A stretch of DNA of 64,000 nucleotides from an uncultured bacterium (GCA_964437095.1 CAYTFH010000002.1:14627-78626); one strand, 5' to 3'. Numbered from the stretch's first letter, positions 11,013 to 33,684 are shown. Program-made: numbers and translations. Notes: generated by a model not told the origin, from the letters alone.

Positions 11013-11023
11013 GGTCCCTCCTC

Positions 11024-11045
11024 TGTCAAGTCGCAGGACTTGACG
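11024..11045. promoter_or_regulatory. HAIR-like dyad in the divergent region between the SDH-protease/hsp20 operon and the PRC/BON gene
   Basis: TGTCAAG-tcgcagga-CTTGACG uses the same half-site as the hspR operator. It lies just upstream of the protease RBS. Confidence 0.45.
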
Positions 11046-11103
11046 GACCCCGGAGGGCCCCGCACACTGGAGGCGGGAGGAGTATACCGCGGAGGGCGGG
11101 AGG

Positions 11104-13440: not shown

Positions 13441-15324
13441 ATGGGCAGGGTTGTCGGCATCGATCTGGGTACCACCAACTCGGTCATCGCGGCCATGGTG
13501 GGTGGAGAGCCCGTGGTGATCCCCAACCGGGAGGGCAGCCGCCTCACCCCGTCCGTGGTGGCCTTCACCAAGACCGGGGAGCGCCTGGTGGGGCAGATGG
13601 CCAAGCGGCAGGCCATCCTCAACCCCGAGAACACCATCTACTCCATCAAGCGCTTCATGGGGCGCCGCTTCCACGAGGTGGAGACGGAGCGGAAGATGGT
13701 GCCCTACAAGGTGGTGGAGGGCCAGCACGGCATGGCGGTGGTGGACATCCCCGCCGCGGGCCGCACCTTCACCCCTGAGGAGATCTCCGCCATGATCCTC
13801 CAGAAGCTGAAGGAGGACGCGGAGGCTTACCTGGGGGAGAAGGTGGAGGCGGCGGTGATCACCGTGCCCGCGTACTTCAACGACGCCCAGCGCACCGCCA
13901 CCAAGAACGCGGGGGAGATCGCGGGGCTCAAGGTGTTGCGGATCATCAACGAGCCCACCGCCGCCTGCCTGGCCTACGGGCTGGACAAGAAGGGCTCGGA
14001 GACGGTGCTGGTGTGGGACCTGGGAGGCGGGACCTTCGACGTCTCCGTCCTGGAGATCGGGGAAGGGGTGTTCCAGGTGCGGGCCACCGCGGGGGACACC
14101 CACCTGGGCGGGGACGACTGGGACGAGCGCATCGTGAACTGGCTGGCGGAGGAGTTCCGCAAGCAGCACGGCATCGACCTCCGCCAGGACCGGCAGGCCC
14201 TGCAGCGGCTGCGGGAGGCCGCGGAGCGGGCCAAGATCGAGCTCAGCGCCATGGTGCAGACCACCATCAACCTGCCCTTCATCACCGCGGACGCCACGGG
14301 GCCCAAGCACCTGGACATGGTGCTCACTCGGGCCAAGTTCGAGGAGCTCACCGCGGACCTGGTGGAGCGGTGCATCGGGCCCTTCCGTCAGGCCCTGCAG
14401 GACGCCAAGCTCAGCGAGCGGGACCTGCACGAGGTCATCCTGGTGGGCGGCAGCACCCGCATGCCCATGATCCAGGAGCTGGTGCGCCGGCTCACGGGGA
14501 AGGAGCCCAACAAGGAGGTCCACCCGGACGAGGTGGTGGCCGTGGGCGCGGCCATCCAGGCGGGGGTGCTGGCGGGTGAGGTGCGGGACGTGGTGCTCCT
14601 GGACGTCACCCCCCTGTCCCTGGGCATCGAGACCCTGGGCGGGGTCATGACGGTCCTCATCCCGCGGAACACCACCATCCCCACCCGGAAGAGCGAGACC
14701 TTCACCACCGCGGAGGACGGCCAGACCCAGGTGGAGATCCACGTGCTGCAGGGCGAGCGGCCCATGGCCCGGGACAACCGCACCCTGGGCCGGTTCATCC
14801 TGGACGGCATCCCGCCCGCGCCGCGGGGGGTGCCCAAGATCGAGGTCACCTTCGACATCGACGCCAACGGCATCCTGGCGGTGTCCGCCAAGGACCTGGC
14901 CACGGGCCGCGAGCAGTCCATCAAGATCACCGGCACCTCCACCCTCACCCGGGAGGAGGTGGAGCGGATGATCAAGGAGGCGGAGGCCCACGCGGAGGAG
15001 GACCGCCGCAAGCGCGAAGAGGCGGAGATCCTCAACCGCGGGGACAGCCTGGCCTACCAGACGGAGCGGCTGCTGCGGGACCAGGCCAAGGGCGTGTCGG
15101 AAGCCGAGCGGCGGGAGCTGGAGCAGAAGGTGGCGGAGCTCCGGCAGGCGGTGCAGGCCCGGGACGTCCAGCGGGTGCGGCAGCTGTCGGAGGAGGTGCA
15201 GCGCCTCACCTACAAGCTCAGTGAGCTGCTGTACCGCGGTGCGGCCAGTGGGGCCAGCACCGGCGGCGGTCAGAGCAAGGGGGACGGGGAGGTCATCGAC
15301 GCGGACTACAAGCCCAGCGACTAG
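13441..15324 (+). CDS. dnaK: molecular chaperone DnaK (Hsp70)
   Basis: [25 protein letters not shown] and [12 protein letters not shown] Hsp70 signatures; 627 aa. Confidence 0.97.
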
Positions 15325-15342
15325 CTGGGGAGGTCACGGGCC

Positions 15343-15948
15343 ATGTGGGAGGAGCGTCCGGAGCGGGAAGGCACCGAGCCGGAAGCCGCAGGGCAGGCCA
15401 CTCCCGCGGAGGCCGAGGCTCCGGAGCAGGCCGCCGCGGAGCCGCAGCCCGTGGTGGTGACCCAGGAGGAGCTGGCGGCCCTCCGGGAGGAGGTGGAGCG
15501 CTACCGCCAGGAGGCGGAGCGCAACTGGCAGCAGTTCCTGCACGCGGCCGCGGACCTGGAGAACTACAAGAAGGCCGCGGCCCGCATGCAGCAGGACGCG
15601 GTGGACCGCACCCGGCGGCAGATGCTGTTGGTGCTCCTCGGGGCGGTGGACGACCTGGAGCGGGCCATCGCCTACGCGGAGCGCGGGGCGGAGCACGAGG
15701 CCGTGGCGGGGATCCTGGAGGGTCTGCGCATCACCCACCGGTCCCTGCTGGACCAGCTCCGGGCCCTGGGCGTGGAGCGCATGGAGGTGGCGGGCGAGCG
15801 GTTCGACCCCGCCCACCACGAGGCGGTGGAGGTGACCCCCGCGGAGGAGGCGGGGGTGGAGCCGGGCACGGTGCTGGAGGCCGTGCAGCCCGGCTACGTC
15901 CTGGACGGTCGGGTCCTGCGCCCCGCACGGGTGCGGGTGGCCCAGTGA
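15343..15948 (+). CDS. grpE: nucleotide exchange factor GrpE
   Basis: Coiled-coil N-terminus followed by the GrpE C-terminal domain (FDPAHHEAVEV...VLEAVQPGYVLDGRVLRPARVRV). Confidence 0.9.
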   Translation: MWEERPEREGTEPEAAGQATPAEAEAPEQAAAEPQPVVVTQEELAALREEVERYRQEAERNWQQFLHAAADLENYKKAAARMQQDAVDRTRRQMLLVLLGAVDDLERAIAYAERGAEHEAVAGILEGLRITHRSLLDQLRALGVERMEVAGERFDPAHHEAVEVTPAEEAGVEPGTVLEAVQPGYVLDGRVLRPARVRVAQ

Positions 15949-15975
15949 CGGTGCGGGCGGGCCGGTGAGGGAGCC

Positions 15976-16875
15976 ATGGAGTTCAAGGACTACTACCGGA
16001 TCCTGGGGGTGGATCGCAAGGCCGACAGCAAGGCCATCGGGGAGGCTTTCCGTCGGCTCGCCCGGCAGTACCACCCGGACGTGAACAAGGACCCCCAGGC
16101 CGCGGAGAAGTTCAAGGAGATCAACGAGGCCTACCAGGTCCTCAGCGACCCGGAAAAGCGCGCCCGCTACGACCAGATGCTGGAGCTGCGGGAGCGCGGG
16201 ATGCCCTGGGAGCAGGTGTTCACCCGACCGGGGACGGGCCGCACCGCGGAGTGGACGTGGTTCGGGGAGCCCCAGGATTTGTTCGGCGGGTTCTCCGACT
16301 TCTTCCGCCGGTTCTTCGCAGACCTGGGAGGCCCCTTCGAGGCGGAAGGGCTGTGGGGCCAGCAGCCCCTCACCGCCACCGCGGAGATCAGCCTGGAGGA
16401 GGCCTTCCGCGGCACCGAGCGGGAGCTGGTGGTGCGCAACGGGTTCCCGCGGCGCGTAACGGTGCGGATCCCACCCGGGGTCCACACAGGCCAGAAGGTG
16501 CGGGTGCGGGGTGCGGGCGGGGACGTGTACGTGGAAGTCCGGGTGCAGCCCCACCCGGTGTTCTCCCGGGAGGGCGACGACCTGGTGTGCGAGATCCCCA
16601 TCTGCCTCACGGAGGCCCTGCTGGGCGCGGAGATCGAGGTCCCCACCCTGGAGGGCAAGGTGAAGGTGCGGGTCCCGCCCGAGACCCAGCAGGGGCAGGT
16701 GTTGAGGCTGCGGGGCCTGGGGATGCCGAAGCTGCGGGGCTCCGGGCGCGGGGACCTGCTGGTCCGGCTGCGGGTGGTGCTGCCGCGGGGGTTGAGCGTG
16801 GAGGAGCGGCGGTTGGTGGAGCAGCTGGCCAAGCTCCGGCGCGAGAACCCGCGGGCTGCCATGGGGCTCAAGTAA
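15976..16875 (+). CDS. DnaJ-class co-chaperone without zinc finger (CbpA-like)
   Basis: [35 protein letters not shown]...[20 protein letters not shown] domain plus C-terminal DnaJ substrate-binding domains. No CxxCxGxG repeats. Confidence 0.85.
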
Positions 16876-16898
16876 GGCGTGGAATGGGGAGGAGACCG

Positions 16899-19505
16899 AT
16901 GCGGTGGGACAAGCTGACGGAGAAGTCGCAGGAAGCCCTGGCGCGGGCCCAGGAGCTGGCCCGGGAGCGCGGCCACCCGCAGGTGGACACCGAGCACCTG
17001 CTGGCGGCCCTCCTGGACCAGGCGGACGGGGTGGTCCCGCAGGTGCTGCAGAAGGCGGGGGCGTCCGTGGCCCGCATCCGCCAGCAGGTGGGCCAGGCCC
17101 TGGCGGCCCTGCCCCAGGTGCACGGTGCGGCGGAGCTGTACGTGGCCCCGGGCCTGCGGCGTGTGTGGGACGCGGCGGAGCAGGAAGCCCAGCGGATGCA
17201 GGACGAGTACACCAGCACGGAGCACTTCCTCCTGGCCATGGCCGACGCCCCCCAGACGGGCGCCGGCCGGGTGCTGCAGCAGAACGGGGTCACCAAGGAG
17301 GCGGTGCTGCGGGCCCTGTCGGAGGTCCGGGGTTGGGTGCGGGTCACCGACCCCCGGCCGGAGGCCAAGTACCAGGTCCTGGAGCGCTACGGCCGGGACC
17401 TCACGGAGCTGGCGCGGGCCGGCAAGCTGGACCCCGTGATCGGGCGGGACGAGGAGATCCGGCGGGTGATCCACGTCCTCAGCCGCCGCACCAAGAACAA
17501 CCCCGTGCTCATCGGCGAGCCGGGGGTGGGCAAGACGGCCATCGTGGAGGGGCTGGCGCAGCGGATCGTGCGCGGGGACGTGCCCGAGCAGCTGAAGCAC
17601 AAGCGGGTCTTCCAGCTGGACATGGGGGCGTTGGTGGCGGGGACCAAGTACCGGGGCGAGTTCGAGGAGCGGCTGAAGGCGGTCCTCAAGGAGATCGCGG
17701 ACAGCCACGGGGAGATCATCCTGTTCATCGACGAGATCCACACCGTGGTGGGCGCGGGGGCCGCGGAGGGGGCCGCCATGGACGCCGCCAACATCCTCAA
17801 GCCCATGCTGGCCCGGGGGGAGCTGCACTGCATCGGCGCCACCACCCTGGACGAGTACCGCAAGCACATCGAGAAGGACCCGGCCCTGGAGCGCCGGTTC
17901 CAGCCCGTGTACGTGGGCGAGCCGTCGGTGGAGGATACCATCTCCATCCTCCGGGGCCTCAAGGAGAAGTACGAGGTCCACCACGGGGTGCGGATCACGG
18001 ACGCCGCGGTGATCGCCGCCGCCACCCTGTCCAGCCGCTACATCAGCGACCGCTTCCTGCCCGACAAGGCCATCGACCTCATCGACGAGGCCGCGGCCAA
18101 GCTCCGCATGGAGATCGACAGCAAACCCGCGGAGCTGGACGAGATCGACCGCCGCATCATGCAGCTGGAGATCGAACGCGAGGCGCTGCGCAGGGAGACC
18201 GATCCCGCCGCCCAGGAGCGGCTGGCGAAGCTGGAGCAGGAGCTGGAGCGGCTGCTCCGGGACAGCGAGGCCCTGCGGCAGCGGTGGGACCGGGAGAAGC
18301 AGATCGTCCAGCGGATCCGGCAGATCAAGGCGGACATCGACCGCACCAAGGTGGAGCTGGAGCAGGCGGAGCGGGTGGCGGACCTGGAGCGGGCGGCCCG
18401 GTTGCGGTACGGGACCCTGCCCGAGCTGCACAAGCAGCTGGGCGCGGCCGAGGCGGAGCTGCGGGCCCTGGGCCCGCACCGCCTGCTGAAGGAGGAGGTG
18501 GACGCGGAGGACATCGCGGAGGTGGTGAGCAAGTGGACCGGCATCCCGGTGACCAAGCTGCTGGAGGGCGAGATGCAGAAGCTCCTGCAGCTGGAGGACC
18601 GGCTCCACCAGCGGGTGGTGGGGCAGGACGAGGCGGTCCAGGCGGTGGCGGACGCCATCCGCCGGGCTCGGGCGGGGCTGAAGGACCCCAAGCGGCCCAT
18701 CGGCGCCTTCCTGTTCCTGGGCCCCACGGGGGTGGGCAAGACGGAGCTGGCCCGCGCCCTGGCGGAGGTGCTGTTCGACTCCGAGGACGCCATGGTGCGC
18801 ATCGACATGTCCGAGTACCAGGAGAAGCACACGGTCTCCCGGCTGGTGGGCGCGCCTCCCGGCTACGTGGGCTACGAGGAGGGCGGGCAGCTCACGGAGG
18901 CCGTGCGGCGCCGGCCCTACCGGGTGGTGCTGTTCGATGAGGTGGAGAAGGCGCACCCGGACGTGCTCAACGTGCTCCTGCAGGTGATGGAGGACGGGCG
19001 GCTCACGGACGCCCAGGGCCGCACCGTGGACTTCAAGAACACCGTCCTCATCCTCACCAGCAACGTGGGCAGCCAGCACCTCCAGCACCTGGACCCCGAG
19101 GACCCCGCGGCCTTCGAGCTGGCCAAGGTGTACGTGCTGGACGAGCTGCGCCGGACCTTCCGGCCGGAGTTCCTCAACCGCCTGGACGAGATCATCGTGT
19201 TCCGGCCCCTGTCCCGGGCCCAGCTGGAGCGCATCGTAGACCTGCAGCTGGCGTACCTGGAGCGGCGGCTGGCGGACCTGAAGATCCGGGTGGAGGTGAC
19301 CCCGGAGGCGCGGGAGTGGGTGGCCCGGGAGGGCTACAGCCCCGACTACGGTGCGCGGCCCCTGCGGCGCCTGATCCAGCGGACGGTGGAGAACACGCTG
19401 AGCCGCATGGTCCTGCGGGGCGAGCTGCGGGAAGGAGACGTGGCCGTGGTCACGGTGCGCGGCGGGGCTATCGCCGTGGAACGCCAACAGCCCGTGCCCG
19501 CGTGA
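16899..19505 (+). CDS. clpB: ATP-dependent chaperone ClpB
   Basis: Two AAA+ modules ([16 protein letters not shown]) with a long middle coiled-coil domain; 868 aa. ATG follows GGGGAGGAG. Confidence 0.95.
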
Positions 19506-22747: not shown

Positions 22748-23104
22748 CTACAGCAGGTCCACCAGCTCGGCCACGGCCCGTTTCAGGCCTGGCCTCCGGA
22801 TCCGGTAGTACACCCACGTCCCGCGGCGCTCCGCTTCCACGAGCCCCGCCTCCCGCAGCACCTTGAGGTGGTGGGACACCGTGGGCTGCGCCAGGGACAG
22901 CGCCTCCTGCAGCTCGCACACGCACAGGGGGCCGTGACGCGCCAGCAGCCGCAGCGCCACCACCCGTGCGGGCTCGGCCAGGGCCGCCAGCACGGACGCC
23001 GTGGCCTCGGCCCGCCGGCGGTCGTCTTCCAGCACCGGAGGCGGAGTACAGCCGCCCGCGGAGGGCACCCCGTCCGGGTGGGTGGGTCTCGCCAACGTCC
23101 GCAC
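22748..23104 (-). CDS. arsR: ArsR/SmtB family metalloregulatory transcriptional repressor
   Basis: LAEPARVVALRLLARHGPLCVCELQEALSLAQPTVSHHLKVL is a winged HTH with a CVC metal-binding motif. Confidence 0.8.
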   Translation of the reverse strand: MRTLARPTHPDGVPSAGGCTPPPVLEDDRRRAEATASVLAALAEPARVVALRLLARHGPLCVCELQEALSLAQPTVSHHLKVLREAGLVEAERRGTWVYYRIRRPGLKRAVAELVDLL

Positions 23105-23170: not shown

Positions 23171-24418
23171 CTAGAGGGCCCGGGTGGCGCCGCGGCCCAG
23201 CACCACCAGGCCGGAGGGGTCCACGTGGTACCGGCGGGCGTCCTCCTCCAGGTCGAACCCGATGACGGTGCCGGGCTCCAGGGTGTTGAACCGGTCCACC
23301 ACCACGCGGCGCAGCCGCACCCCGGGCCGCAGCACGCAGTAGTCCATGACCACGGACTCCTCCACCTCCACGTCCTCCTCCACCCGGACCTCCCGGCCCA
23401 GCACGGACCGGACCACCCGCCCGCCGTGGATCACGCACCCCTCGCCGATCAGGGAGTCCCGGACCTCCCCGAACACGATGCGGGCGGAGGGACCCGCGTA
23501 GGGAGCTCCCTTGATGGGCCACAGGTGGTTGGACAGGTCGAACCGGGGCTGCGGGCCCAGCAGGTCCATGTGGGCCCGCCAGTACGCCTCCAGGGTCCCC
23601 ACGTCCCGCCAGTACCCGGGCTCTTCGTAGGGCTTGACGCCGGGGATCCGGTTGGTGTGGAAGTCGTACGCGAACACCCGGTGTCGGGACACCAGGGCGG
23701 GCAGGATGCTGCGGCCGAAGTCGTGCGCCGTGTCCTTCGAGGCGTCCTCCACCACGGCGTCCACCAGCAGCCTGGCGTCGAACAGGTAGTTCCCCATGGA
23801 GGCCAGGGCGAACCCCGGCCGGCCCGGCATGGGCCGGGGCCGGGCGGGCTTCTCTTCAAATCCGCGCACGCGTCCGTCGGGGTCCGTCTCCAGCACGCCC
23901 ATGCGGCTGGCCTCCTCCACGGGCACGGGCAGGGCGGCCACGGTGACCTCCGCCTCGCGCTCCAGGTGGAATTCCACCATCTGGGAGACGTCCATGCGGT
24001 AGATGTGGTCGGCCCCGAACACCGCCACCAGGGCCGGGCCGAAGTCGCGGATGAGGTTCAGGTTCTGGTACACCGCGTCCGCGGTGCCCCGGTACCAAGA
24101 GTCCCCCCAGCGCATCTGCGGAGGGACCACCAGGACGAAGTGGTCCTCGTGCAGGCCGCTGGCCCGCCAGGCGTGGCGCAGGTGGTCGATGAGGGACTGG
24201 GACTTGTACTGCACCAGGATGTACAGGGAGAACACGTTGGAGTTCACCAGGTTGCTCAGCACGAAGTCCACGATGCGGTACTTGCCCCCGAAGGGCACCG
24301 CGGGCTTGCTGCGGTCCCGGGTCAGGGGGTGTAGGCGCTCACCGCGGCCCCCCGCCAGCACCAGGCCCAGCGTGCGCCTGCGACCACCGGGAGACGGCCG
24401 GTCTCCGCTGTTGGACAT
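23171..24418 (-). CDS. glgC: glucose-1-phosphate adenylyltransferase GlgC
   Basis: LVLAGGRGERLHPLTRDRSKPAVPFGGKYRIVDFVLSN signature. Confidence 0.9.
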   Translation of the reverse strand: MSNSGDRPSPGGRRRTLGLVLAGGRGERLHPLTRDRSKPAVPFGGKYRIVDFVLSNLVNSNVFSLYILVQYKSQSLIDHLRHAWRASGLHEDHFVLVVPPQMRWGDSWYRGTADAVYQNLNLIRDFGPALVAVFGADHIYRMDVSQMVEFHLEREAEVTVAALPVPVEEASRMGVLETDPDGRVRGFEEKPARPRPMPGRPGFALASMGNYLFDARLLVDAVVEDASKDTAHDFGRSILPALVSRHRVFAYDFHTNRIPGVKPYEEPGYWRDVGTLEAYWRAHMDLLGPQPRFDLSNHLWPIKGAPYAGPSARIVFGEVRDSLIGEGCVIHGGRVVRSVLGREVRVEEDVEVEESVVMDYCVLRPGVRLRRVVVDRFNTLEPGTVIGFDLEEDARRYHVDPSGLVVLGRGATRAL

Positions 24419-24437: not shown

Positions 24438-25286
24438 TCATACGGGCCAGGGACTGCCGGAAAGGCCCTGGACGGGGATCCCGGCCGCCTCCAGGGCTTC
24501 GCGCAACCGCCACCGCAGCTCCCGCTCCGCCTGGGCCCGGTGGGCGGGCAGGACGGGGACGGCCACGCGGACGGTGGCGCCGGCGGGGGTGAGCTCCACC
24601 AGGGAATCCACCTCCACGGGACCCGCGGTCCAGTCCGGGTGCTGCGCGGCCCACGTCCCCGCCACCTCCTGGCAGACCCGGGCCGCGCTACTAAGGTCCG
24701 CGGTGGCAGCTACGGTGACGGACACCACCGCCCGCAGGTGCCCCCGGCTCAGGTTGGCGAAGCGGGTGATCTCGCCGTTGGGGATGGTGACCAGCTCCCC
24801 CGTGTACCGGCGGATCTGGGTGTTGCGGAGGGTGATCTGCTCCACCTGCCCTACCTCACCGCCCACCGCCACCACGTCGCCCACCTGCAGCGCCCCGTCC
24901 AGGATGAGGAAGAAGCCGGACAGGCTGTCCCGCACCAGGGTCTGCGCCCCGAGACCCACCGCCAGTCCTGCGATCCCCGCGCTGGCGATGACCGCGGCGG
25001 CGTCCACGTTCATCTGCCGCAGGATCATCACTAGGGCCACGAAGTACACCGCGTAGCGCACCGCGCTGTGGGCCAGGGAGGCCAGGGTGCGCGCCCGAGC
25101 GAGCCGCGCCTCGTAGTCCCGAACCCCCGGGAGAGGCTGCAGCAGCCGGTCCACGGCCCTGCGCGACCCGGTCACCACCAGCCACGCTCCCAAGGCGATG
25201 GCCACCGACGCCAGGAGGCTGCGCAGCGCCGCCGCCAGGCGGGCGGCGGAGGCCAGGTCCTGGAACACTTCCCGCAACACCTCCAT
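24438..25286 (-). CDS. small-conductance mechanosensitive channel (MscS family)
   Basis: Three TMs followed by the MscS beta domain (GDVVAVGGEVGQVEQITLRNTQIRRYTGELVTIPN). ATG overlaps the upstream stop (ATGA). Confidence 0.8.
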   Translation of the reverse strand: MEVLREVFQDLASAARLAAALRSLLASVAIALGAWLVVTGSRRAVDRLLQPLPGVRDYEARLARARTLASLAHSAVRYAVYFVALVMILRQMNVDAAAVIASAGIAGLAVGLGAQTLVRDSLSGFFLILDGALQVGDVVAVGGEVGQVEQITLRNTQIRRYTGELVTIPNGEITRFANLSRGHLRAVVSVTVAATADLSSAARVCQEVAGTWAAQHPDWTAGPVEVDSLVELTPAGATVRVAVPVLPAHRAQAERELRWRLREALEAAGIPVQGLSGSPWPV

Positions 25287-27052
25287 CAGATCTCCCCCCG
25301 CGCGCGGCGGACGGCCAGGTCGATGAGCAGGGCCGCAGACCATCCGAAGCCGGGAGCCGCGCGGGTGCCGGGCTGGCCCGTCTCCGGGTTGTAGTACTCC
25401 CGGAGGTCGGGGGATTGGGCCAGCATCTCCAGGGTACGGTCGCACAGCTCCCTGGCTCGGTGGCGCTGCCCGCAGCGCAGCAAGCCGTCCACCAACAGGT
25501 AGTTCACGTTCACCCAAACCGGGCCGCGCCACATGCGGTCGGGGTCATATGCGGGGTCGGAGCGGGCCACGGTGGGGACGGGGTACGGTGCCCAGAAGGC
25601 CTCCGGGTCCTCCAGGCGATCCAGCAGGGCGCCCTGGACCGCGGGCGGGAGCCGCCCCGTGAGCAGGGGCAGCAAGCTCACCACCGTGAGGCTCGGTACC
25701 CGTTCGTGGCCACCGGGGACCATGCGCTGCGCCCAGAACAGGCCGGAGCGCGGGTCGTACAGGTGGTCCAGCAGGGCCTGCGCCAAGCGGTCCGCCTGCC
25801 GGCGCCAGGCTTGAGCGTCCTCCATCAAACCCAGGACCTCCGCCATGCGCCCCAGGGCCTCGGCCTGCAGGCACAGGTACGTGTTCAGGTCCGGCGACTC
25901 CACGGGCATGCCAAAGTCCCAGAGCGGGCTGTCGTCCAGCCCGGACGAGAACGGGTGGTCGTACTGGCACACCCCATCCCCGTCCCGGTCGCAGCGTTCC
26001 AGCCACCAGGCCTGCCAACGGCTCAGGGGCTCGTACATCTCGTCCAGGAAGTCCGCGTCCTGGGTGGCCTCGTACACCCGCCACAGGCACCACCCCGCCA
26101 CGGGCGGCTTGGTGACGGAGGCGTCCACGGGGTAGCCCATGCGCTCCACCACGCCCTCGTCGAACACACAGTCGGGCACCATCCCGTCGGGCCGCTGGTG
26201 GTCGAACAGGACCCGGAACTGGTCGTGGGCCAGCTGTGGGTCCACGTGCCGGTACGCCAGGGCGTGGAAGAAGGCGTCCCACTGCCACAGCCCCACGTAG
26301 TGCACCTTGGACGGCACCATGGCCTCCCGCGTCACGTAGAACCGGCTGCTGATGAGCCCGGCCCGCATCAGGTACCACGCGTACAGATACGCCGGCCGGA
26401 GTCCCGGCAGCGCTGCGGGGATCCGGTCGAACCACTCCCGCCACCGCTGCTCCGCGGCCTCGAAGACACCCGAGGGCTGGATACGGCGGTCAAAGCCCAG
26501 GCGCGGGGTGACGTTGAGGGTGAACAGGGGATCCGGGTGGTGGCCTACCACCACGGTGACCTGCCACTGGCCGGAATCCGTGGCCGCGGCCTCGTTGCGG
26601 AGCACGGGGGCGTTGGTGGTGTACGCCACGTTGCGGATCCCCCGGGCGCGACCTCCCCGCCGGTCGGGGGTCAGGCTGTCGGCCCGGACCACGAACCGGA
26701 TCCCCCAGGGGCCCGGAGGGGGCCTTAAAGCCAGCAGCTCGGGGGTGGCGAAGCACAGCTGGAAGGACCCGAGGGGAGTGCGGAACACCAGCTTGTGCGG
26801 GTAGCAGCTCAGGTCCCACCGGAGCGGGTTGCCCTGGCCGTCCAGCAGCTCCACCTCCTTCACCAGCGGCGGCCGCACCCGGTACGTGCCCTCCGTGTAC
26901 TCCAGCTTCGGCCACCGCTCGCACACCCGCACGTACAGCCGCGGCCGGTCCGGCTCCCGGAACACCAGGATGCGGCTGCCGCGGTCCGTGAAGGGCACCA
27001 CGGTGGGGTCCAGGCGGGAGCCCACCACCTCCAAGGGGTCGGCTTCAGGCAT
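25286..27052 (-). CDS. GH63 family glycoside hydrolase, likely glucosylglycerate/mannosylglycerate hydrolase
   Basis: (alpha/alpha)6 GH63-like segments (GLWQWDAFFHALA, WRGPVWVNVNYLLVDGL). Adjacent to gpgS. Confidence 0.6.
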   Translation of the reverse strand: MPEADPLEVVGSRLDPTVVPFTDRGSRILVFREPDRPRLYVRVCERWPKLEYTEGTYRVRPPLVKEVELLDGQGNPLRWDLSCYPHKLVFRTPLGSFQLCFATPELLALRPPPGPWGIRFVVRADSLTPDRRGGRARGIRNVAYTTNAPVLRNEAAATDSGQWQVTVVVGHHPDPLFTLNVTPRLGFDRRIQPSGVFEAAEQRWREWFDRIPAALPGLRPAYLYAWYLMRAGLISSRFYVTREAMVPSKVHYVGLWQWDAFFHALAYRHVDPQLAHDQFRVLFDHQRPDGMVPDCVFDEGVVERMGYPVDASVTKPPVAGWCLWRVYEATQDADFLDEMYEPLSRWQAWWLERCDRDGDGVCQYDHPFSSGLDDSPLWDFGMPVESPDLNTYLCLQAEALGRMAEVLGLMEDAQAWRRQADRLAQALLDHLYDPRSGLFWAQRMVPGGHERVPSLTVVSLLPLLTGRLPPAVQGALLDRLEDPEAFWAPYPVPTVARSDPAYDPDRMWRGPVWVNVNYLLVDGLLRCGQRHRARELCDRTLEMLAQSPDLREYYNPETGQPGTRAAPGFGWSAALLIDLAVRRARGEI

Positions 27053-28868
27053 GGGAAGGTCCCCCGGAGGCCAGCAGGGCCGCGCGGCGGGCACGGTACT
27101 CGGGCACGGTGAGCACGGGCGGGCGCTCCACCTCCACCACCTCCCGCTCCTCCAGGAACAACTGGCCCAGCTCGTGGCGGATGAGCTTCATGGTGCGGGA
27201 CGCGGAGTCCAACAGGGGCGTGCCGATCCGGTCCTCCAGCCGCCGCGCCACCACCTGGACGATCTGGAACGCCATGAGGGACAGGCTCTGGAGGGACTGG
27301 TTGCGGTGGATGCGCTGCTCCAGGTCCACCTGTCCGATGGCGTGCAGCCCGAACCGGCTCAACAGGTCGATGAGCATGCCGGTCTCCACCCCGTAGCCGG
27401 TGAAGAAGGGGATCTGCTCCAGGGCCTCCCTCCGTCCCGCGTACTCACCCGCCAGGGGCTGGATGAGGCCGGACAGTTCCGGGAAGAACAGGTTGAACAG
27501 CGGGCGCGCCACCAGCTCCGTCACCCGGCCGCCGCCGGTCTCGTACAGCCGGTCCCCGATCTGCACGGGCCGTCGGTAGTACCCTTTGACGAACAGGATG
27601 CGCTCCTCCCGGAGCAGGGGGCCCACCAGGCCGTACACGAACTTGGGGTGCATGTTGCGGATGTCCGTGTCCACCCACACCACCACGTCCCCCCGCACCA
27701 CGTACAGGCTCTTCCACAGGGCCTCCCCCTTGCCCCGGTAGGAGCCCAGGTGGGGCAGGATCTCCCGGTGGCGGTACACGGGGATCCCTTCCGCCTCCGC
27801 GATCCCCCGGGTGCGGTCGGTGGAGTCGCTGTCGATGAGGACCATCTCGTCCAGGAGGGGTACCTCCCGCATGAGGCGGTCCCGCAGTACCCGGATCACG
27901 CTCCCGACGGTCTCCTCCTCGTTGAGGGCGGGCAGGGCCAAGCTGATGGTCCAGCCGCGGCGCCGCTTGAGCTCCACCAGGTGGTCCAGGTCCTCGAACT
28001 CCCGGGCGTGGAAGGTGTTCTCCGCGAACCACTTCTCCACTTCCGGCCGCGACCACCGGGCCGGGGCGGTGGCGTGCTCCTGTAGCCACACCTGCACCGA
28101 CCGGCCGGTGCGGACCACCACCAGCGGGGCGATGGCGCGCAGGGGAGGTTGCACCGCGGGCCGCGCGGGGTCCGCGGTGGCGCCCACCACCACCGCGGTG
28201 TAGCGGGGGGCCTCCTGGGCGATGACGTGGGCGGCGCTGCCCGTGGCGATGCGCTTCCGCACCCCCTGCTCCGCCCGCTGCATCACCACCAGGTACGGCC
28301 GCTCCTCCCGCCAACGGTCCCGCTCCGGGATGTCCTCCCGGAACACGTGCAGGGCGGTGACCTCACCTCCCGCGGCCTCTGCCAGGGCCTGCGCCACCCG
28401 CAGGGCCAGCTCCGCGTTGGGCCCGCCCCGCACGCCCACCAGGACCCGCGAGAAGTCCTGGGGAGCCAGGGGCGGGGCCAGGACCACGTCGCACGGAGCC
28501 GTCCTCAGCAGGTCGTCCACCCGCAGGCCGAACACGGGCTCCTCCAGGGAGCCCGGGCGCAGGACCACCAGGAGCTCTGCCGCCTCCTCCCGGCACGCGG
28601 AGGTCACTTCCCGCCAGGAGTCGTGGCCCGCCCGAACCAGCACCCGCACCGCCTCGGCCCCAGGCCGGCTCCGGGCCGCCCGCTCCAGGTCCTCCCTGGC
28701 CCGCTGTGCCGCGGTGGCCGCGGTGCTCAGGGGCTCGTCGGGGGGGACGGGCACGGGGTACAGGAGCACCGGGTCGGCGCCCCACGCCCGCGCCAGGGGC
28801 AGGAGGAGCTCTAGGACTCCGGCCGCGCGCTCCGGCTGGGTGAGGGTTGCCAGGACCGTACGCTTCAT
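27045..28868 (-). CDS. gpgS: universal stress protein (tandem Usp) fused to glucosyl-3-phosphoglycerate synthase GpgS (GT81)
   Basis: The C-terminal ~320 aa align colinearly with mycobacterial GpgS (ISLALPALNEEETVGSV, LIDSDSTD, GKGEALWKSL, GGGRVTELVARPL, SGEYAGRRE, GYGVETGMLID). The N-terminal ~290 aa have two UspA-like halves. Confidence 0.8.
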   Translation of the reverse strand: MKRTVLATLTQPERAAGVLELLLPLARAWGADPVLLYPVPVPPDEPLSTAATAAQRAREDLERAARSRPGAEAVRVLVRAGHDSWREVTSACREEAAELLVVLRPGSLEEPVFGLRVDDLLRTAPCDVVLAPPLAPQDFSRVLVGVRGGPNAELALRVAQALAEAAGGEVTALHVFREDIPERDRWREERPYLVVMQRAEQGVRKRIATGSAAHVIAQEAPRYTAVVVGATADPARPAVQPPLRAIAPLVVVRTGRSVQVWLQEHATAPARWSRPEVEKWFAENTFHAREFEDLDHLVELKRRRGWTISLALPALNEEETVGSVIRVLRDRLMREVPLLDEMVLIDSDSTDRTRGIAEAEGIPVYRHREILPHLGSYRGKGEALWKSLYVVRGDVVVWVDTDIRNMHPKFVYGLVGPLLREERILFVKGYYRRPVQIGDRLYETGGGRVTELVARPLFNLFFPELSGLIQPLAGEYAGRREALEQIPFFTGYGVETGMLIDLLSRFGLHAIGQVDLEQRIHRNQSLQSLSLMAFQIVQVVARRLEDRIGTPLLDSASRTMKLIRHELGQLFLEEREVVEVERPPVLTVPEYRARRAALLASGGPSHA

Positions 28869-28948
28869 GCAAGGGCAGTTTACCGCCCTGCCGCGGTGGG
28901 CACGAGCCGACAGGTGTTGATCGACCCGGCCCCGAAGATAACGGAGTC

Positions 28949-30013
28949 ATGAGCTACGTGCTGGACGACCCGCACCGCCGGAAGGCCTTGGACCCCCAGG
29001 ACATGGTGGGCCTGGTGTTGCGCACCCCGGAGTTCCTGCAGGAGGGGTGGAAGTTGGGGAGTGCGCTCCCGATCCCCGACCCGGAACCGCCCCGGCACCT
29101 CCTGGTCCTCGGCATGGGCGGATCGGGCATCGGGGGCGACCTGTTGCGGGGGCTCCTGTACGGCCGGGCCCGGTTCCCCGTGACCGTGGTCAAGGACTAC
29201 TCCCTGCCCGCGTGGGTGGGGCCGGGGGCGATGGCCTTCGCATGCTCGTACTCGGGCAACACGGAGGAGACCCTGAGCGCGTACCAGCTGGCCCGTGCCG
29301 CGGGCGCGCGGTGCGTGGCGGTCACCTCCGGGGGCAAGCTGGCGGAGCGCGCGGCGCGGGACGGAGTCCCGTGGGTGAGAGTCCCCCCGGGGCTTCCACC
29401 GAGGGCGGCTCTGGGCTACCTGCTGGGTCCCATGCTGGCGGTGGTGCACCGTTGGGGCTGGGTGGACGGCCTGCAGCAGGAGGTGGAGGAGGCGGTCCCC
29501 CTGCTCCAGGAGCTGGCGCGACGGTGGGGCCCGGAGGTGGCCACCCCGGACAACCCGGCCAAGCAGCTGGCCCGGGACCTGGTGGCGCGGGTGCCCGTGG
29601 TGTACGCGGCGTCGCGCCTGTCGGAGGCGGCGGCCCTGCGGTGGAAGACCCAGCTGAACGAGAACAGCAAGGTGTACGCCACGTGGAACGCCTTCCCGGA
29701 GCTCAACCACAACGAGACCGTGGGCTGGGCGCTGGCGGGACAGCCGGAAGGGCTGCTGGCGGTGGTGGTGCTCCGGGACCCGGACGACCCGCCGAGGCTG
29801 GTCCGGCGGGTGGAGGTGACCCGGGAGTTGGCGTTCGGTCCGGCGGCCGCCGTCCACGAGGTGCGGGCGACCGGGCGGGCCCCGTTGAGCCGGGTCCTGT
29901 CCCTCGTCTTGTTCGGGGATCTGGTGAGCGTGTATCTTGCATACTTGAGCGAGGTGGACCCCACCCCCGTGACGGTGATCGACGAGCTCAAGCGTCGCCT
30001 GGAGAGCCGGTAG
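28949..30013 (+). CDS. bifunctional phosphoglucose/phosphomannose isomerase (SIS domain, archaeal-type PGI/PMI)
   Basis: LLVLGMGGSGIGGDL SIS motif and a PGI/PMI family C-terminus. Confidence 0.7.
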   Translation: MSYVLDDPHRRKALDPQDMVGLVLRTPEFLQEGWKLGSALPIPDPEPPRHLLVLGMGGSGIGGDLLRGLLYGRARFPVTVVKDYSLPAWVGPGAMAFACSYSGNTEETLSAYQLARAAGARCVAVTSGGKLAERAARDGVPWVRVPPGLPPRAALGYLLGPMLAVVHRWGWVDGLQQEVEEAVPLLQELARRWGPEVATPDNPAKQLARDLVARVPVVYAASRLSEAAALRWKTQLNENSKVYATWNAFPELNHNETVGWALAGQPEGLLAVVVLRDPDDPPRLVRRVEVTRELAFGPAAAVHEVRATGRAPLSRVLSLVLFGDLVSVYLAYLSEVDPTPVTVIDELKRRLESR

Positions 30014-30033
30014 GGCGAGGAGGCGGACAGCGG

Positions 30034-31140
30034 ATGGCGCGGGTGTACCTGGAGAACGTGACCAAGCGGTTCGGGAACGTGGTGGCGGTGAACCGGGTGA
30101 CCCTGGAGATCCCGGACCGGCAGTTCACGGTCCTGGTGGGCCCCTCCGGGTGCGGCAAGACCACCTGCCTGCGCCTCATCGCGGGGTTGGAGGAGGTGAC
30201 GGAGGGGAACGTCTACATCGGCGACCGCCTGGTGAACGACGTGCCCCCCAAGGACCGGGACATCGCCATGGTGTTCCAGAACTACGCCCTGTACCCCCAC
30301 ATGACGGTGTACGAGAACATGGCCTTCGGCCTGCGGCTGCGGAAGTACCCCAAGTCGGAGATCGACCGCCGGGTGCGGGAGGCCGCGGCCATGCTGGGCA
30401 TCGAGAACCTCCTGGACCGCAAGCCCCGGCAGCTGTCGGGGGGCCAGCGGCAGCGGGTGGCGGTGGGGCGGGCCATCGTGCGGGAGCCCCAGGTGTTCCT
30501 CATGGACGAGCCCCTCAGCAACCTGGACGCGGCCCTACGGGTGCAGACCCGGGCGGAGCTGAAGAAGCTGCACGCCCGCCTGCAGACCACCACCGTGTAC
30601 GTCACCCACGACCAGGTGGAGGCCATGACCATGGGGGACCGCATCGTGGTCATGCGGGACGGGGTGGTGCAGCAGGTGGACACGCCCATGAACCTGTACG
30701 AGAAGCCCGCCAACCTGTTCGTGGCGGGCTTCATCGGCAGTCCCTCCATGAACTTCGTGCCGGGAGAGGTCCGGCAGAAGGACGGGGCCCTGGTGTTCGA
30801 CGCGGGGACGTGGCACGTGCCCATCCCGCCCGACCTGCACGAGTACGTGCGGCCGTGGGAGGGACGGCGGGTCATCTTCGGGATCCGGCCCGAGCACATG
30901 GAGGACGTGGCCCTACGCAACGGCCAGCTTCCGCCCTCCTTCGTCACCCTGCGGGCCAAGGTGGAGGTGCACGAGCCGTTGGGGTCGGACGTGATCCTCT
31001 ACCTGGACGCGGGCGGGCACTCCCTGGTGGCCCGGGTGGACGCCCACAGCCGGGCCAAGATGGGCGACGAGGTCACCGTGGCCATGGACCTGCGCAAGAT
31101 GCACCTGTTCAACGCCCAGACCCACGAGGCCATCGTCTGA
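30034..31140 (+). CDS. sugar ABC transporter ATP-binding protein (MalK/MsmX/UgpC type), orphan
   Basis: GPSGCGKTT, LSGGQRQRVA and LMDEPLSNLD motifs plus a TOBE C-terminal domain. There are no adjacent permease or SBP genes. Confidence 0.9.
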   Translation: MARVYLENVTKRFGNVVAVNRVTLEIPDRQFTVLVGPSGCGKTTCLRLIAGLEEVTEGNVYIGDRLVNDVPPKDRDIAMVFQNYALYPHMTVYENMAFGLRLRKYPKSEIDRRVREAAAMLGIENLLDRKPRQLSGGQRQRVAVGRAIVREPQVFLMDEPLSNLDAALRVQTRAELKKLHARLQTTTVYVTHDQVEAMTMGDRIVVMRDGVVQQVDTPMNLYEKPANLFVAGFIGSPSMNFVPGEVRQKDGALVFDAGTWHVPIPPDLHEYVRPWEGRRVIFGIRPEHMEDVALRNGQLPPSFVTLRAKVEVHEPLGSDVILYLDAGGHSLVARVDAHSRAKMGDEVTVAMDLRKMHLFNAQTHEAIV

Positions 31141-31188
31141 GCGCGGGCTCCCACGGACCCGCAACCTCCCGCGAGGGAGCGGCGGCGC

Positions 31189-32058
31189 CTACGAGGACGG
31201 CCCCTTGTCCTCCACGGCCCTCTGGGCCAGGTCGCCCAGGGGGGCCAGCAGGCGCGTGAACTCCATGGGGAACACGAACTTGGTGGCGGGGCTCTCGCCC
31301 AGGGCCTTGAGGGCCTCCAGGTACTGCAGGGTCATGGTCTTGCTGTCCACGTTGCGGGCCACGCTGAAGATCTTGTCCAGGGCCAGGGCGAACCCCTCCG
31401 CCCGCAGGATGGCCGCCTGACGGTCGCCCTCCGCCTTCAGGATGGCCGCCTGCTTCTCGCCCTCCGCCACCTTGATGGCCGCCTCGCGTTTCCCGTCCGC
31501 CTCCGTGACCACCGCCCGGCGGTTGCGCTCCGCGGACATCTGCCGCGTCATGGCTTCCTGGACCTCCCGCGGCGGAAGGATCTCCCGGATCTCCACCGCG
31601 GTGACCTTCACGCCCCACCGCTCCGTGACCTCGTCCAACTTCGCCCGGAGCACCTGGTTGATCTGCTCCCGGCGGGCCAGCACGTCGTCCAGGACGATGT
31701 CCCCGATCACCGCCCGCAGGGTGGTGGTAGCGATCCCCCGGGCCGCACCCGCGAAGTCCGCCACCTGGATCACGGAAGCCTCCGGCTCCACCACCTTCCA
31801 GTAGATGAGGAAGTCGATGTTGATGGGCGCGTTGTCCTTGGTGATGCAGGTCTGGGAAGGGATCTCCAGGAAGGCCTCCCGCAGGTCCACCCACACCGCC
31901 CGGTCCACGAAGGGGATGAGGAACACGATCCCGGGACCCCGCTGGCCGATGGAGCGGCCGAACCGGAACACCACCAGCCGCTGGTACTCGCGGACGATCT
32001 TGACCGCGGAGAGCAGCAGCCAAAGGCCGACGACTGCCGCGGCCAGCACGTAGGTCAT
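31189..32058 (-). CDS. SPFH/band-7 (stomatin-like) membrane protein
   Basis: N-terminal TM then VVFRFGRSIGQRGPGIVFLIPFVDR...ITKDNAPINIDFLIYWKV SPFH domain. Confidence 0.85.
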   Translation of the reverse strand: MTYVLAAAVVGLWLLLSAVKIVREYQRLVVFRFGRSIGQRGPGIVFLIPFVDRAVWVDLREAFLEIPSQTCITKDNAPINIDFLIYWKVVEPEASVIQVADFAGAARGIATTTLRAVIGDIVLDDVLARREQINQVLRAKLDEVTERWGVKVTAVEIREILPPREVQEAMTRQMSAERNRRAVVTEADGKREAAIKVAEGEKQAAILKAEGDRQAAILRAEGFALALDKIFSVARNVDSKTMTLQYLEALKALGESPATKFVFPMEFTRLLAPLGDLAQRAVEDKGPSS

Positions 32059-32147: not shown

Positions 32148-33110
32148 GTGTCCCACGGTGCCGTGGCGGTGGACCTGGGAGGGAGCTGGATCCGGGCGGG
32201 CGTGGTGGGCCCGGACGGCGCGGTGCGGGAGGTGCTGCGCGTCCCCACCCCGCAGGCCGGGCCCGATGCGGTGGCGGAGGCCATCGCCCACCTGGTGCGG
32301 CAACTGGGCCCGGTGCCGCCGGGAAGGGTGGGGGTGGCAGTACCGGGGCCGCTCAGCGTGCGGGAGGGGGTGGTGTTCGAACCGCCCAACCTGCGGGGCT
32401 GGAGGGACGTACCCCTGCAGCGGATGCTGGAGGAGCGCTTGCGCCGGCCCGTGGTCCTGGAGAACGACGCCAACGCCGCGGCGTCGGGGGAGTGGTGGAA
32501 GGGTGCGGGTGCCGGGAGCCGCCACCTGGTCTACCTCACCGTGAGCACGGGGGTGGGAGGAGGCCTGGTGCTGGATGGGAAGCTGTACCGCGGGGCGAGC
32601 GACACCGCGGGGGAGATCGGCCACGTGGTGGTGGAGCCCGACGGCCCGTTGTGCTCATGCGGCCGGCCCGGGCACCTGGAGGCGGTGGCCTCCGGCCCCG
32701 CCATCGCCCGGTGGACGCTGGAACGCCTGCGGGAGGGCCGGGCTTCGGTGCTGGCGGGCAAGGAAGCGCTGTCCAGCCGGGACGTGGCGGAAGCCGCGGA
32801 GCGCGGCGACGGGCTGGCGCAGGAGGCTTTCCAGCGGGCGGGCCGGTACCTGGGCCTAGCCGTGGCAGGGCTACTGAACCTGCTGAACCCGGAGGTGGTG
32901 GTCATCGGCGGAGGGGTGGCCCGGGCGGGGCGGTGGCTGTTCGACCCGCTGCTGCAGGCGGCGCGGGAAGCCAGCTTCGACCGTCCGTGGAAGGCCGCCC
33001 GCATCGTGCCCGCGGCCCTGGGGGACCACGCGGGGCTGGTGGGGGCGGCGTACGTGGCCATGGAGCAGGAAGGAGGGATGCGCGGTGGACCGGGTCACGC
33101 TGAACACTGA
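32148..33110 (+). CDS. ROK family glucokinase
   Basis: AVDLGGSWIRAGVV, ENDANAAASGE and a CSCGRPGHLE zinc motif. GTG is 6 nt after AGGAGG. Confidence 0.85.
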   Translation: MSHGAVAVDLGGSWIRAGVVGPDGAVREVLRVPTPQAGPDAVAEAIAHLVRQLGPVPPGRVGVAVPGPLSVREGVVFEPPNLRGWRDVPLQRMLEERLRRPVVLENDANAAASGEWWKGAGAGSRHLVYLTVSTGVGGGLVLDGKLYRGASDTAGEIGHVVVEPDGPLCSCGRPGHLEAVASGPAIARWTLERLREGRASVLAGKEALSSRDVAEAAERGDGLAQEAFQRAGRYLGLAVAGLLNLLNPEVVVIGGGVARAGRWLFDPLLQAAREASFDRPWKAARIVPAALGDHAGLVGAAYVAMEQEGGMRGGPGHAEH

Positions 33111-33684
33111 AGGCGGCGTGCTGGAGCTGGTGCGCGCCGACATCACCCAGCAAGCCACCGACGCGGTGGTGAACGCCGCCAACCCCACCCTCATGGGCGG
33201 CGGAGGGGTGGACGGAGCCATCCACCGGGCTGGTGGTCCGGCCATTCTCGAGGAGTGCAAGCGCATCGTGCAGACCCTGCCGGGCCGGCGGCTGCCCCCC
33301 GGTGAAGCGGTGATCACCACCGGGGGAAACCTGCCCGCGCGCTACGTGATCCACACCGTGGGACCGGTGTGGCGGGGAGGCGGGGAGGGGGAGGACGAGG
33401 TTTTGGCTCGGGCGTACCGGTCCAGCCTGAAGCTCGCCCGGGAGCGGGGGTTGCGGTCCGTGGCCTTCCCGTCCATCAGCACGGGTGCGTACGGGTTCCC
33501 CGTGCCGCGCGCGGCCCGGGTGGCCCTTGGGGCGATCCTGGAGTTCTTGCGCGCGAACCCCGGGGCGTTCGACGTGGTACGGATGGTGCTCTGGAGTGAG
33601 GACGACTTCCGCGCCTACCGCCAGGCCCTGGAGGAGCTGCGGGCTACAGGAGGAGGCGGACGGGGTTCTCCAGCAAGCGCTTGA
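33085..33684 (+). CDS. macro domain protein (YmdB-like O-acetyl-ADP-ribose deacetylase)
   Basis: ADITQQATDAVVNAANPTLMGGGGVDGAIHRAGGP...VIHTVGPVW matches the YmdB/Af1521 macro family. It overlaps the glucokinase 3' end by 26 nt and E2 convergently. Confidence 0.8.
   Translation: MDRVTLNTEGGVLELVRADITQQATDAVVNAANPTLMGGGGVDGAIHRAGGPAILEECKRIVQTLPGRRLPPGEAVITTGGNLPARYVIHTVGPVWRGGGEGEDEVLARAYRSSLKLARERGLRSVAFPSISTGAYGFPVPRAARVALGAILEFLRANPGAFDVVRMVLWSEDDFRAYRQALEELRATGGGGRGSPASA

Follow-up and report, generated by a model that had tools for sequence, protein, structure and literature searches.

We describe here a set of genes on a 64,000-nt (64 kb) stretch of DNA from an uncultured bacterium, called the window in the following, with all positions counted across the whole stretch. 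The genes probably form an operon for the turnover of the stress solute glucosylglycerate, that is, for making it, degrading it and venting it. At the head of the operon stands a gene in which a tandem universal stress protein (Usp) module is fused to a predicted glucosyl-3-phosphoglycerate synthase (GpgS) of glycosyltransferase (GT) family GT81. It is linked to genes for a GH63 hydrolase, an MscS-type mechanosensitive channel and a glucose-1-phosphate adenylyltransferase (GlgC), and it lies divergent from a gene for a bifunctional phosphoglucose/phosphomannose isomerase (PGI/PMI). A first-pass annotation of the same DNA had proposed a glycosyl-glycerate solute cluster around the fusion with GH63, MscS and PGI/PMI as linked genes, and this proposal is borne out here. 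We establish below what the genes are, how the operon is built and how it is conserved, along with the folds and catalytic residues.

The synthesis of glucosylglycerate has been studied in detail in mycobacteria, in cyanobacteria and in some thermophiles, while little is understood of how the synthase is controlled as a protein. A direct handle on this control is offered by a synthase that exists as a permanent fusion with a stress-protein module in at least several hundred lineages of uncultured bacteria, among them Chloroflexota and Armatimonadota. The architecture is new within a known pathway and, far from being rare, is widely distributed; the pathway is thus extended by an uncharacterised architecture, and nothing is overturned.

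Organization and conservation of the operon

The four genes lie head to tail on the minus strand, in the order Usp-GT81 fusion (27045-28868), GH63 (25286-27052), MscS (24438-25286) and GlgC (23171-24418). The ATG of the GH63 gene at 27052 overlaps the stop codon of the fusion gene by 8 nt, the start of the MscS gene overlaps the GH63 stop by 1 nt (TGATG), and GlgC follows 19 bp downstream of MscS. On the other side of the fusion gene, a divergent intergenic region of 80 bp (28869-28948, from reading of the sequence) leads to the PGI/PMI gene on the plus strand (28949-30013, 354 aa), the start of which was set from relatives and sequence. In these 80 bp we found no Rfam family (riboswitch or RNA element) and no consensus promoter or terminator, and the promoter and terminator scans for the operon boundaries gave nothing meaningful.

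The identities of GpgS, GlgC and PGI/PMI are all above curated cut-offs. GlgC (415 aa) scores 553 bits with NF002023 (cut-off 458) and contains the Pfam domains NTP_transferase and LbH, PGI/PMI scores 367 bits with NF006426 (cut-off 295), and the score of the synthase is given in the next section. The MscS-type channel (282 aa) matches the Pfam families MS_channel_1st and MS_channel_2nd; helices 2/3 and the beta-domain are present, with 38.8 bits for PF21088 and 65.3 bits for PF00924, both above the cut-off.

The fusion, GH63, MscS and the divergent PGI/PMI, all named in the first-pass annotation, are thus present as genes. The coordinates given there are correct overall, except for the start of GH63, for which the real ATG is the one at 27052. 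The range assigned to the cluster left the MscS gene outside, and both GlgC and the MalK/UgpC-type ATPase that follows PGI/PMI were missed.

The closest relatives, with 70-98% identity, are found in metagenome-assembled genomes (MAGs) of Armatimonadota and GAL15 and in hot-spring-type metagenome contigs. In these, the order Usp-GpgS, GH63, MscS and GlgC with the divergent PGI/PMI-MalK pair is identical; Armatimonadota relatives of 70% and 81% identity preserve it, and GlgC is the fourth gene in loci L081-L084.

The fusion itself reaches much further. A pattern scan with one genome per species recovers at least 594 species-level genomes that have it. Most of them belong to Chloroflexota (Anaerolineae, Thermoflexia and Chloroflexia), and others to Dormibacterota, Binatia, Acidobacteriota and deltaproteobacterial MAGs. 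The best 120 matches in a collection of 5.8 billion proteins all combine Usp with GT2 over 570-680 aa, with a few truncated entries as the exception, and carry the plain NCBI name glucosyl-3-phosphoglycerate synthase. In view of these numbers, the description of the fusion as unusual cannot be retained. We found no publication linking GpgS to Usp domains.

The synthase domain

The fusion protein has 607 aa with an ATG start, and its assignment as a predicted glucosyl-3-phosphoglycerate synthase is based on Pfam, NF010496 and Foldseek. Pfam recognizes Usp in two stretches (E 1.1e-16, 62 bits) and Glycos_transf_2. The catalytic domain, residues 275-588 (27105-28046, minus strand), matches NF010496, the NCBIfam equivalog model of glucosyl-3-phosphoglycerate synthase, with 381.1 bits against a cut-off of 262, covering positions 3-305 of the 307 in the model, and it can be aligned to the structures 3f1y, 3ckj and 7p5l.

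An AlphaFold2 model of the fusion, built on 84 family sequences, has a pLDDT of 91.7 and a pTM of 0.78. Foldseek assigns the C-terminal half of this model to the GT-A fold, with GT81 structures matched at a TM-score on target (TMt) of 0.85-0.92. For the R. xylanophilus mannosyl-3-phosphoglycerate synthase (MpgS) the match has E 3e-32, TMt 0.89-0.92 and 41% identity, and for the GpgS of M. hassiacum and M. tuberculosis TMt 0.85-0.90 and 42-45% identity.

The key GT81 residues are D400-T-D402 (the DXD motif), K380, V449-T450 (in GGGRVTEL), the motif PLAGE at 471-475, Y492, E495 and R519-I-H521-R-N (RIHRN). K380, D400/D402, V449-T450, Y492, E495 and H521 are invariant among the 84 family sequences. 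In M. tuberculosis GpgS, catalytic or 3-phosphoglycerate-binding roles are played by the DXD motif, Lys114-Asp134-Glu232, Val186-Thr187, Tyr229 and His258, where Val186-Thr187 contact the carboxylate of 3-phosphoglycerate and His258 is part of the metal loop (Pereira et al., PMC2581804). These roles map here to D400/D402, K380, E495, V449-T450, Y492 and H521, all of which are present and family-invariant. The GT81 active site is intact, and the C-terminus is a GpgS-type GT81 domain, as the first-pass annotation had held: the equivalog model is passed, the fold is that of GT81 and the catalytic residues are kept.

The same annotation had named a closer kinship to MpgS as the result that would speak against it. 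This is formally touched, as the best solved match in a PDB phmmer search is R. xylanophilus 3f1y with 262 bits and mycobacterial GpgS reaches 225 bits. However, the 3f1y enzyme is itself a GT81 member, referred to as MpgS/GpgS (PMC2581804), and the identities over the structural matches are equal. The classical GT55 MpgS reaches only 23.6 bits. The GT81 domain is roughly as far from the R. xylanophilus MpgS/GpgS as it is from the mycobacterial GpgS.

Glucose or mannose

The sugar transferred is probably glucose rather than mannose, mainly because of the linkage to GlgC, which is co-operonic with the fusion; mycobacterial GpgS uses ADP-glucose efficiently as a donor (PMC2581804). The metal loop R-I-H-R-N is also GpgS-like (R-A-H-R-N in the mycobacterial enzymes), compared to R-Q-N-R-H in R. 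xylanophilus. Furthermore, related loci carry genes resembling phosphorylases of subfamily GH13_18, which includes strict glucosylglycerate phosphorylases (PMC11009771).

Several points weigh against glucose. Ser210 in the PLSGE motif of M. tuberculosis GpgS has been proposed to exclude mannose (PMC2581804), and the corresponding position is Ala here (PLAGE), as it is in R. xylanophilus MpgS/GpgS. The PGI/PMI would serve either hexose, and GlgC could equally serve glycogen metabolism; in one related genome (L088), GlgC-like, GH57 and TreT genes occur in the same neighbourhood without the fusion. As for the motif, Ala and Ser alternate in the family and M. hassiacum GpgS has PLGGE, and PL(S/A/G)GE is therefore not diagnostic of the sugar.

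An alternative product would be mannosylglycerate, alone or mixed with glucosylglycerate, with the GT81 domain using GDP-mannose derived from fructose-6-phosphate via PGI/PMI, and with GH63 acting as a mannosylglycerate hydrolase. The R. xylanophilus enzyme, which is the best solved match and has the same PLAGE motif in place of the PLSGE of M. tuberculosis, reportedly makes both mannosyl-3-phosphoglycerate and glucosyl-3-phosphoglycerate in vitro and is said to make the mannosyl compound in vivo. The divergent pairing of a bifunctional PGI/PMI with the fusion would also fit, as would the GH63 catalytic domain with its 26-27% identity to the mannosylglycerate hydrolase (MgH) of T. thermophilus. 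We nevertheless consider this scenario unlikely. No mannose-1-phosphate guanylyltransferase or phosphomannomutase is present in the operon or among the scanned open reading frames (ORFs) of the window, and the co-operonic nucleotidyltransferase is GlgC, with 88 bits against a cut-off of 440 for the mannose-1-phosphate guanylyltransferase model. The metal loop of mycobacterial type, the passing of the GpgS equivalog model and the GH13_18 glucoside-phosphorylase-like genes of the family loci also speak against mannose, and the PLGGE motif of M. hassiacum GpgS takes away the diagnostic value of PLAGE.

The GH63 hydrolase

The first-pass annotation correctly placed a GH63 gene next to the fusion. 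The protein, a predicted glucosyl/mannosyl-glycerate hydrolase of 588 aa, is GH63/MGH1-like according to Pfam (PF22422, 280 bits). Direct reading of the sequence reveals no signal peptide or hydrophobic N-terminus, and the enzyme should therefore be cytoplasmic. The AlphaFold2 model (pLDDT 92.4, pTM 0.92) consists of an N-terminal beta-sandwich (about residues 1-185) and an (alpha/alpha)6 barrel. For the whole chain, the best Foldseek match is E. coli YgjK (TMq 0.76, 20% identity), while the barrel alone is 26-27% identical to T. thermophilus MgH and 22% identical to the glucosylglycerate hydrolase (GgH) of M. hassiacum. In a sequence search of the PDB, eight YgjK entries outrank these two. 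The single-domain build of about 420-450 aa, typical of GgH/MgH, is not what is found here, and the protein is an uncharacterised two-domain long form.

The catalytic pair and the substrate motif of MgH/GgH are kept. G371-L-D373, E552 (with the acid/base pair formed by D373 and E552) and Y252-x3-W256-x-W258-D259 are invariant among 57 sequences. In GgH/MgH, the catalytic residues are Asp182/Glu419, the substrate motif is Tyr36/Trp40/Trp42/Asp43, and Tyr375, preceding Trp376, contacts the glycerate (PMC6608630); the residues are assigned here by motif spacing relative to that work, and not by a residue-by-residue structural alignment. YgjK has Gly at the Tyr position of the Y-x3-W-x-W-D motif.

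Two results argue against a GgH-type enzyme. The protein fails the NCBIfam GgH equivalog NF047898, with 110 bits against a cut-off of 550, and Tyr375 is replaced by an invariant Met507 (in M507-W508-R-G-P-x-W513). Together with the YgjK-like two-domain build, the low equivalog score means that the label of glucosylglycerate-hydrolase type, given in the first-pass annotation, goes too far.

The family extends at 50% identity or more across Armatimonadota and Chloroflexota, where its members carry the database names 'trehalase family glycosidase', 'glycogen debranching', isomerase and 'hypothetical'. Among 75 loci of Chloroflexota type, 16 have the long GH63 no more than 10 kb from the fusion, and in L087 it is part of the same gene string. 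Because this linkage to the fusion is conserved across phyla, our best guess is that the enzyme is a glycosyl-glycerate hydrolase, and the substrate that we infer is the solute made by the operon. The partner of the fusion would then represent a probable new hydrolase family for this solute, and the database names are corrected accordingly. The linkage has its limit in one Armatimonadota genome (GCA_031459615.1), which keeps GH63-MscS beside PGI/MalK without the synthase. In this locus (L088:5400-17803), the PGI/PMI-MalK pair is divergent from GH63-MscS and a 107-aa ORF stands in place of Usp-GpgS; genes for GH57 enzymes, a GlgC-like protein and a TreT-type trehalose synthase follow downstream.

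The tandem Usp module

Usp domain 1 spans residues 1-135 (28464-28868, minus strand), with the best Pfam stretch at residues 3-131 and a degenerate ATP motif (LRPGSLEEPVFGL). Usp domain 2 spans residues 140-256 (28101-28451, minus strand) and is recognized from family alignments and from the Foldseek match to the tandem Usp proteins Rv2623/UspE. In the AlphaFold2 model, the N-terminal half forms two beta-alpha-beta domains, that is, a tandem Usp, and Foldseek matches it to the tandem Usp proteins Rv2623, UspE and YdaA with E ~1e-9 over ~290 columns. The Usp fold of this region, the lack of which would have undermined the first-pass annotation, is thus confirmed by both Pfam (PF00582, 62 bits) and structure.

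The same cannot be said of the description of the module as a nucleotide-binding stress domain. The ATP-binding Usp class (MJ0577-type) is defined by the motif G-2x-G-9x-G(S/T) (PMC5168468). This motif has no match in residues 1-280, covering both Usp domains, and it is absent from 181 of 194 family members; the 13 members that retain it mark its former place. Since the canonical ATP motif is missing from both domains and from most of the family, nucleotide binding is unsupported, and gating, if any, would have to take place via another ligand or via protein contacts. At the usual position of the nucleotide pocket, the beta1 loop of Usp2 reads V-R-G-G-P, with R147-G148-G149-P150 nearly invariant, and E219 and G229-A230 of Usp2 are likewise conserved across phyla. 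At this position the MJ0577-type ATP binders usually carry an Asp-containing loop.

A search with residues 1-275 against 1.84 billion representative proteins returned 750 relatives. The nearest of those that are not GpgS are APC amino-acid permeases and DUF389 proteins with the same tandem module. There are also triple fusions of ~1060 aa with the order GT-A / Usp-Usp / GpgS, namely P0189 (1061 aa) and about six similar representatives; the N-terminal GT-A domain of P0189 (~450 aa) is distant kin of GpgS and of mannosylglycerate synthase (PDB phmmer E 1e-7 to 1e-3). The occurrence of the module on APC permeases, on DUF389 proteins and in the triple fusions makes it a portable add-on, of a kind usually read as regulatory; Usp domains on transporters are generally taken in this sense.

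One point counts against a regulatory module, whose role on the synthase is putative: the Usp domains are only ~30-34% identical across distant members, compared to 69% for the GT81 domain. The module might instead have no signalling role at all and be a structural scaffold for dimerisation or stability (e.g. for thermostability or oligomer assembly) that was acquired once and then kept. The much faster divergence of the Usp region and the absence of the canonical ATP motif from most of the family would be in line with this, as would the tendency of Usp domains to dimerise and the dimeric state of GpgS (PMC2581804). On the other hand, the near-invariance of R147-G-G-P, E219 and G229-A across phyla, at the position of the pocket, suggests a conserved site or interface, and transporters, too, carry a module of this kind. 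The scaffold is thus a possibility worth keeping in mind, though not the one that we favour.

A stronger version of the regulatory role would have the Usp module as a true allosteric sensor that switches glucosylglycerate synthesis post-translationally, with the long-form GH63 as a new family of glucosylglycerate hydrolases. Taken as a whole, this combination is doubtful at present. If it were true, the allosteric signal might be a second messenger, ionic strength/K+ or a partner protein, acting via the R-G-G-P/E219/G-A pocket of Usp2, and Usp-GpgS with the long GH63 would make up a widespread and unstudied system of solute control in Chloroflexota and Armatimonadota.

The phosphatase

A further point that weighs against a complete glucosylglycerate pathway at this locus is that no phosphatase for glucosyl-3-phosphoglycerate was identified in the window or, in the Armatimonadota relatives, within 10 kb. 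Searches of the 64 kb for a phosphatase of His_Phos_1 or HAD-IIB MPGP type gave no match, whether by tblastn (queried with 25 His_Phos_1 and MPGP proteins of related loci), by profile hidden Markov models (HMMs) on six-frame ORFs or by Pfam on about 45 ORFs, and the relatives show no such gene call within 10 kb. The first-pass annotation was hence right that a GpgP partner is missing here, and it named a gene elsewhere or a non-orthologous enzyme as the options. The absence is common both in the family and in mycobacteria; it is no special feature and no evidence for a non-orthologous enzyme.

Of the 75 related loci, 68 have enough downstream sequence to judge. An adjacent phosphatase lies directly downstream of the fusion in 23 of these, while two-thirds have none. 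In 16 loci it is a His_Phos_1 protein of ~190 aa, and in 7 a HAD-IIB protein of the MPGP family (TIGR01486, 220 bits against a cut-off of 165). As a rule, then, the synthases of this family are served by a phosphatase of their own gene, and two superfamilies without kinship have supplied it. With adjacency in just 23 of 68 loci, and with Rv1208 (GpgS) and Rv2419c (GpgP) unlinked in mycobacteria (PMC3240985), an unlinked GpgP is ordinary, and by analogy the phosphatase step is most simply taken to be encoded elsewhere in the genome.

The option that the Usp module replaces the phosphatase is rejected, since the fusion and an adjacent phosphatase occur together in related genomes. A Macro-domain protein (33085-33684, plus strand) is a neighbour of the ROK kinase that all close relatives keep. 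As ADP-ribose-1''-phosphate phosphatases are among the Macro-domain proteins, it is a weak candidate, and the only one nearby, for a sugar-phosphate phosphatase of non-orthologous origin.

Proposed mechanism and the primer alternative

On this basis, a mechanism can be proposed. GlgC would make ADP-glucose, and the Usp-Usp-GT81 enzyme would transfer the glucose to 3-phosphoglycerate to yield glucosyl-3-phosphoglycerate, from which a phosphatase encoded elsewhere in the genome would free glucosylglycerate. Once the stress ends, the cytoplasmic long-form GH63 would hydrolyse the solute, and on osmotic downshift MscS would vent solutes. The divergent PGI/PMI, together with the conserved ROK kinase and the MalK-type ATPase (both described below), would feed hexose phosphates into the pathway. 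The tandem Usp, of a kind also fused to APC permeases, would act as a regulatory or scaffolding module.

It should also be asked whether glucosylglycerate is the end product. Clustering of the neighbours in the 75 related loci shows a GT4 glycosyltransferase directly upstream of the fusion in 42 of them, often with a second GT downstream, and a GH13_18-like gene within the locus in 25. In Chloroflexota (e.g. L087:1851-9779 and L089:6757-11688), a GT4 gene usually precedes Usp-GpgS, and the genes after it often encode a phosphatase, a second GT, a GH13_18 phosphorylase-like protein and the long GH63. Such a gene set suggests a pathway to a di- or oligo-glycosyl-glycerate resembling mannosylglucosylglycerate (MGG), rather than to plain glucosylglycerate. 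The cluster in L089 adjoins genes for CBS, Na+/H+ exchanger and Na+/Ca2+ exchanger proteins.

Extended to the window, this would make glucosylglycerate a primer for a larger glycoside, such as an MGG-like solute or a polymer resembling methylglucose lipopolysaccharide (MGLP), with GH63 and GlgC belonging to alpha-glucan metabolism. MggA of the MGG pathway is indeed a GT4 enzyme (PMC3736172), mycobacterial GpgS primes MGLP (PMC2581804), and the GT-A / Usp-Usp / GpgS triple fusions exist. However, tblastn and profile HMMs detect no GT4, no second glycosyltransferase and no GH13_18 in the window, and the Armatimonadota relatives have no gene of these types called within 10 kb. The operon in the window clade instead couples the synthase directly to a hydrolase and to MscS, as expected for a free solute. 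We therefore regard a primer role in this clade as quite improbable, and retain the turnover of glucosylglycerate as the probable function.

Other genes of the window

Beyond PGI/PMI, on the plus strand, lies the gene for a sugar ATP-binding cassette (ABC) transporter ATPase of MalK/UgpC type (30040-31140, 366 aa; NF008653 484 bits, cut-off 432), the position of which is kept in L081, L083 and L088. Past it come an SPFH protein, a glucokinase-like ROK-family sugar kinase (32148-33110, plus strand; Pfam ROK, TIGR00744 229 bits and thus below the cut-off of 260), which is kept as a neighbour in L081 and L083, and the Macro-domain protein. An ArsR-family helix-turn-helix (HTH) regulator (22748-23104, minus strand; Pfam HTH_5) lies 66 bp downstream of GlgC and has the same position in L081, L083 and L084.

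The MalK-type gene is masked by spurious long ORFs (29047-31140 and 30150-31259, both plus strand), typical of DNA with the 72% G+C of this window, and was recognized from relatives showing what belongs at that place. The ORF 30150-31259, rejected as a gene, has no Pfam match because it is in the wrong frame; the real gene is the ATPase at 30040-31140.

A heat-shock cluster at 13441-19505, about 4 kb from the solute operon, contains DnaK-GrpE-DnaJ and then ClpB, the last identified by its position and by comparison with L084. A second DnaJ-domain protein is encoded at 769-1566. A protein with two BON domains (OsmY-type) and PRC-barrel domains (11104-12537, plus strand) overlaps on the opposite strand with an ORF for an SDH/NfeD-type ClpP-like protease (10152-11453, minus strand), and the true start of one of them must therefore lie further in than the ORF limits. 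The ORFs 40647-41720 (plus), 53148-54188 (minus) and 5342-6310 (plus) have coding-like third-position G+C (GC3) and no Pfam family at E <= 1e-6, with 5342-6310 giving only a sub-threshold CarboxypepD_reg match.

Comparison with known systems

With mycobacterial GpgS (Rv1208), the protein of the window shares the GT-A fold, the catalytic and 3-phosphoglycerate-binding residues, and a phosphatase that is not adjacent to the synthase. The mycobacterial enzyme differs in its length of ~325 aa, in having no Usp module, in its genomic context, in the PLSGE motif of M. tuberculosis in place of PLAGE, and in that its product primes MGLP. The R. xylanophilus MpgS/GpgS (3f1y, 3kia, 3o3p) is the highest-scoring solved relative (262 bits, TMt ~0.9) and has in common with the window protein an N-terminal helix motif (EWF... 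vs KWFAEN...) and PLAGE, whereas it has no Usp domains and its metal loop is RQNRH rather than RIHRN.

The GH63 protein shares with T. thermophilus MgH and M. hassiacum GgH the (alpha/alpha)6 domain, the acid/base pair (D373 and E552 here) and the Y-x3-W-x-W-D motif, but has an additional N-terminal beta-sandwich, as in YgjK, and Met in place of Tyr375. The Usp module has the two-Usp pseudo-dimer fold of Rv2623 and E. coli UspE. Rv2623 binds ATP, while the module of the window lacks the G-2x-G-9x-G(S/T) motif and, unlike the Usp modules found on transporters, is fused to a soluble glycosyltransferase. Finally, the Usp-GpgS clusters of Chloroflexota have the same fusion (45-53% identity) and often the same long GH63; they carry an adjacent phosphatase and, in addition, extra glycosyltransferases or a phosphorylase, whereas the clade of the window has MscS and GlgC and no adjacent phosphatase.

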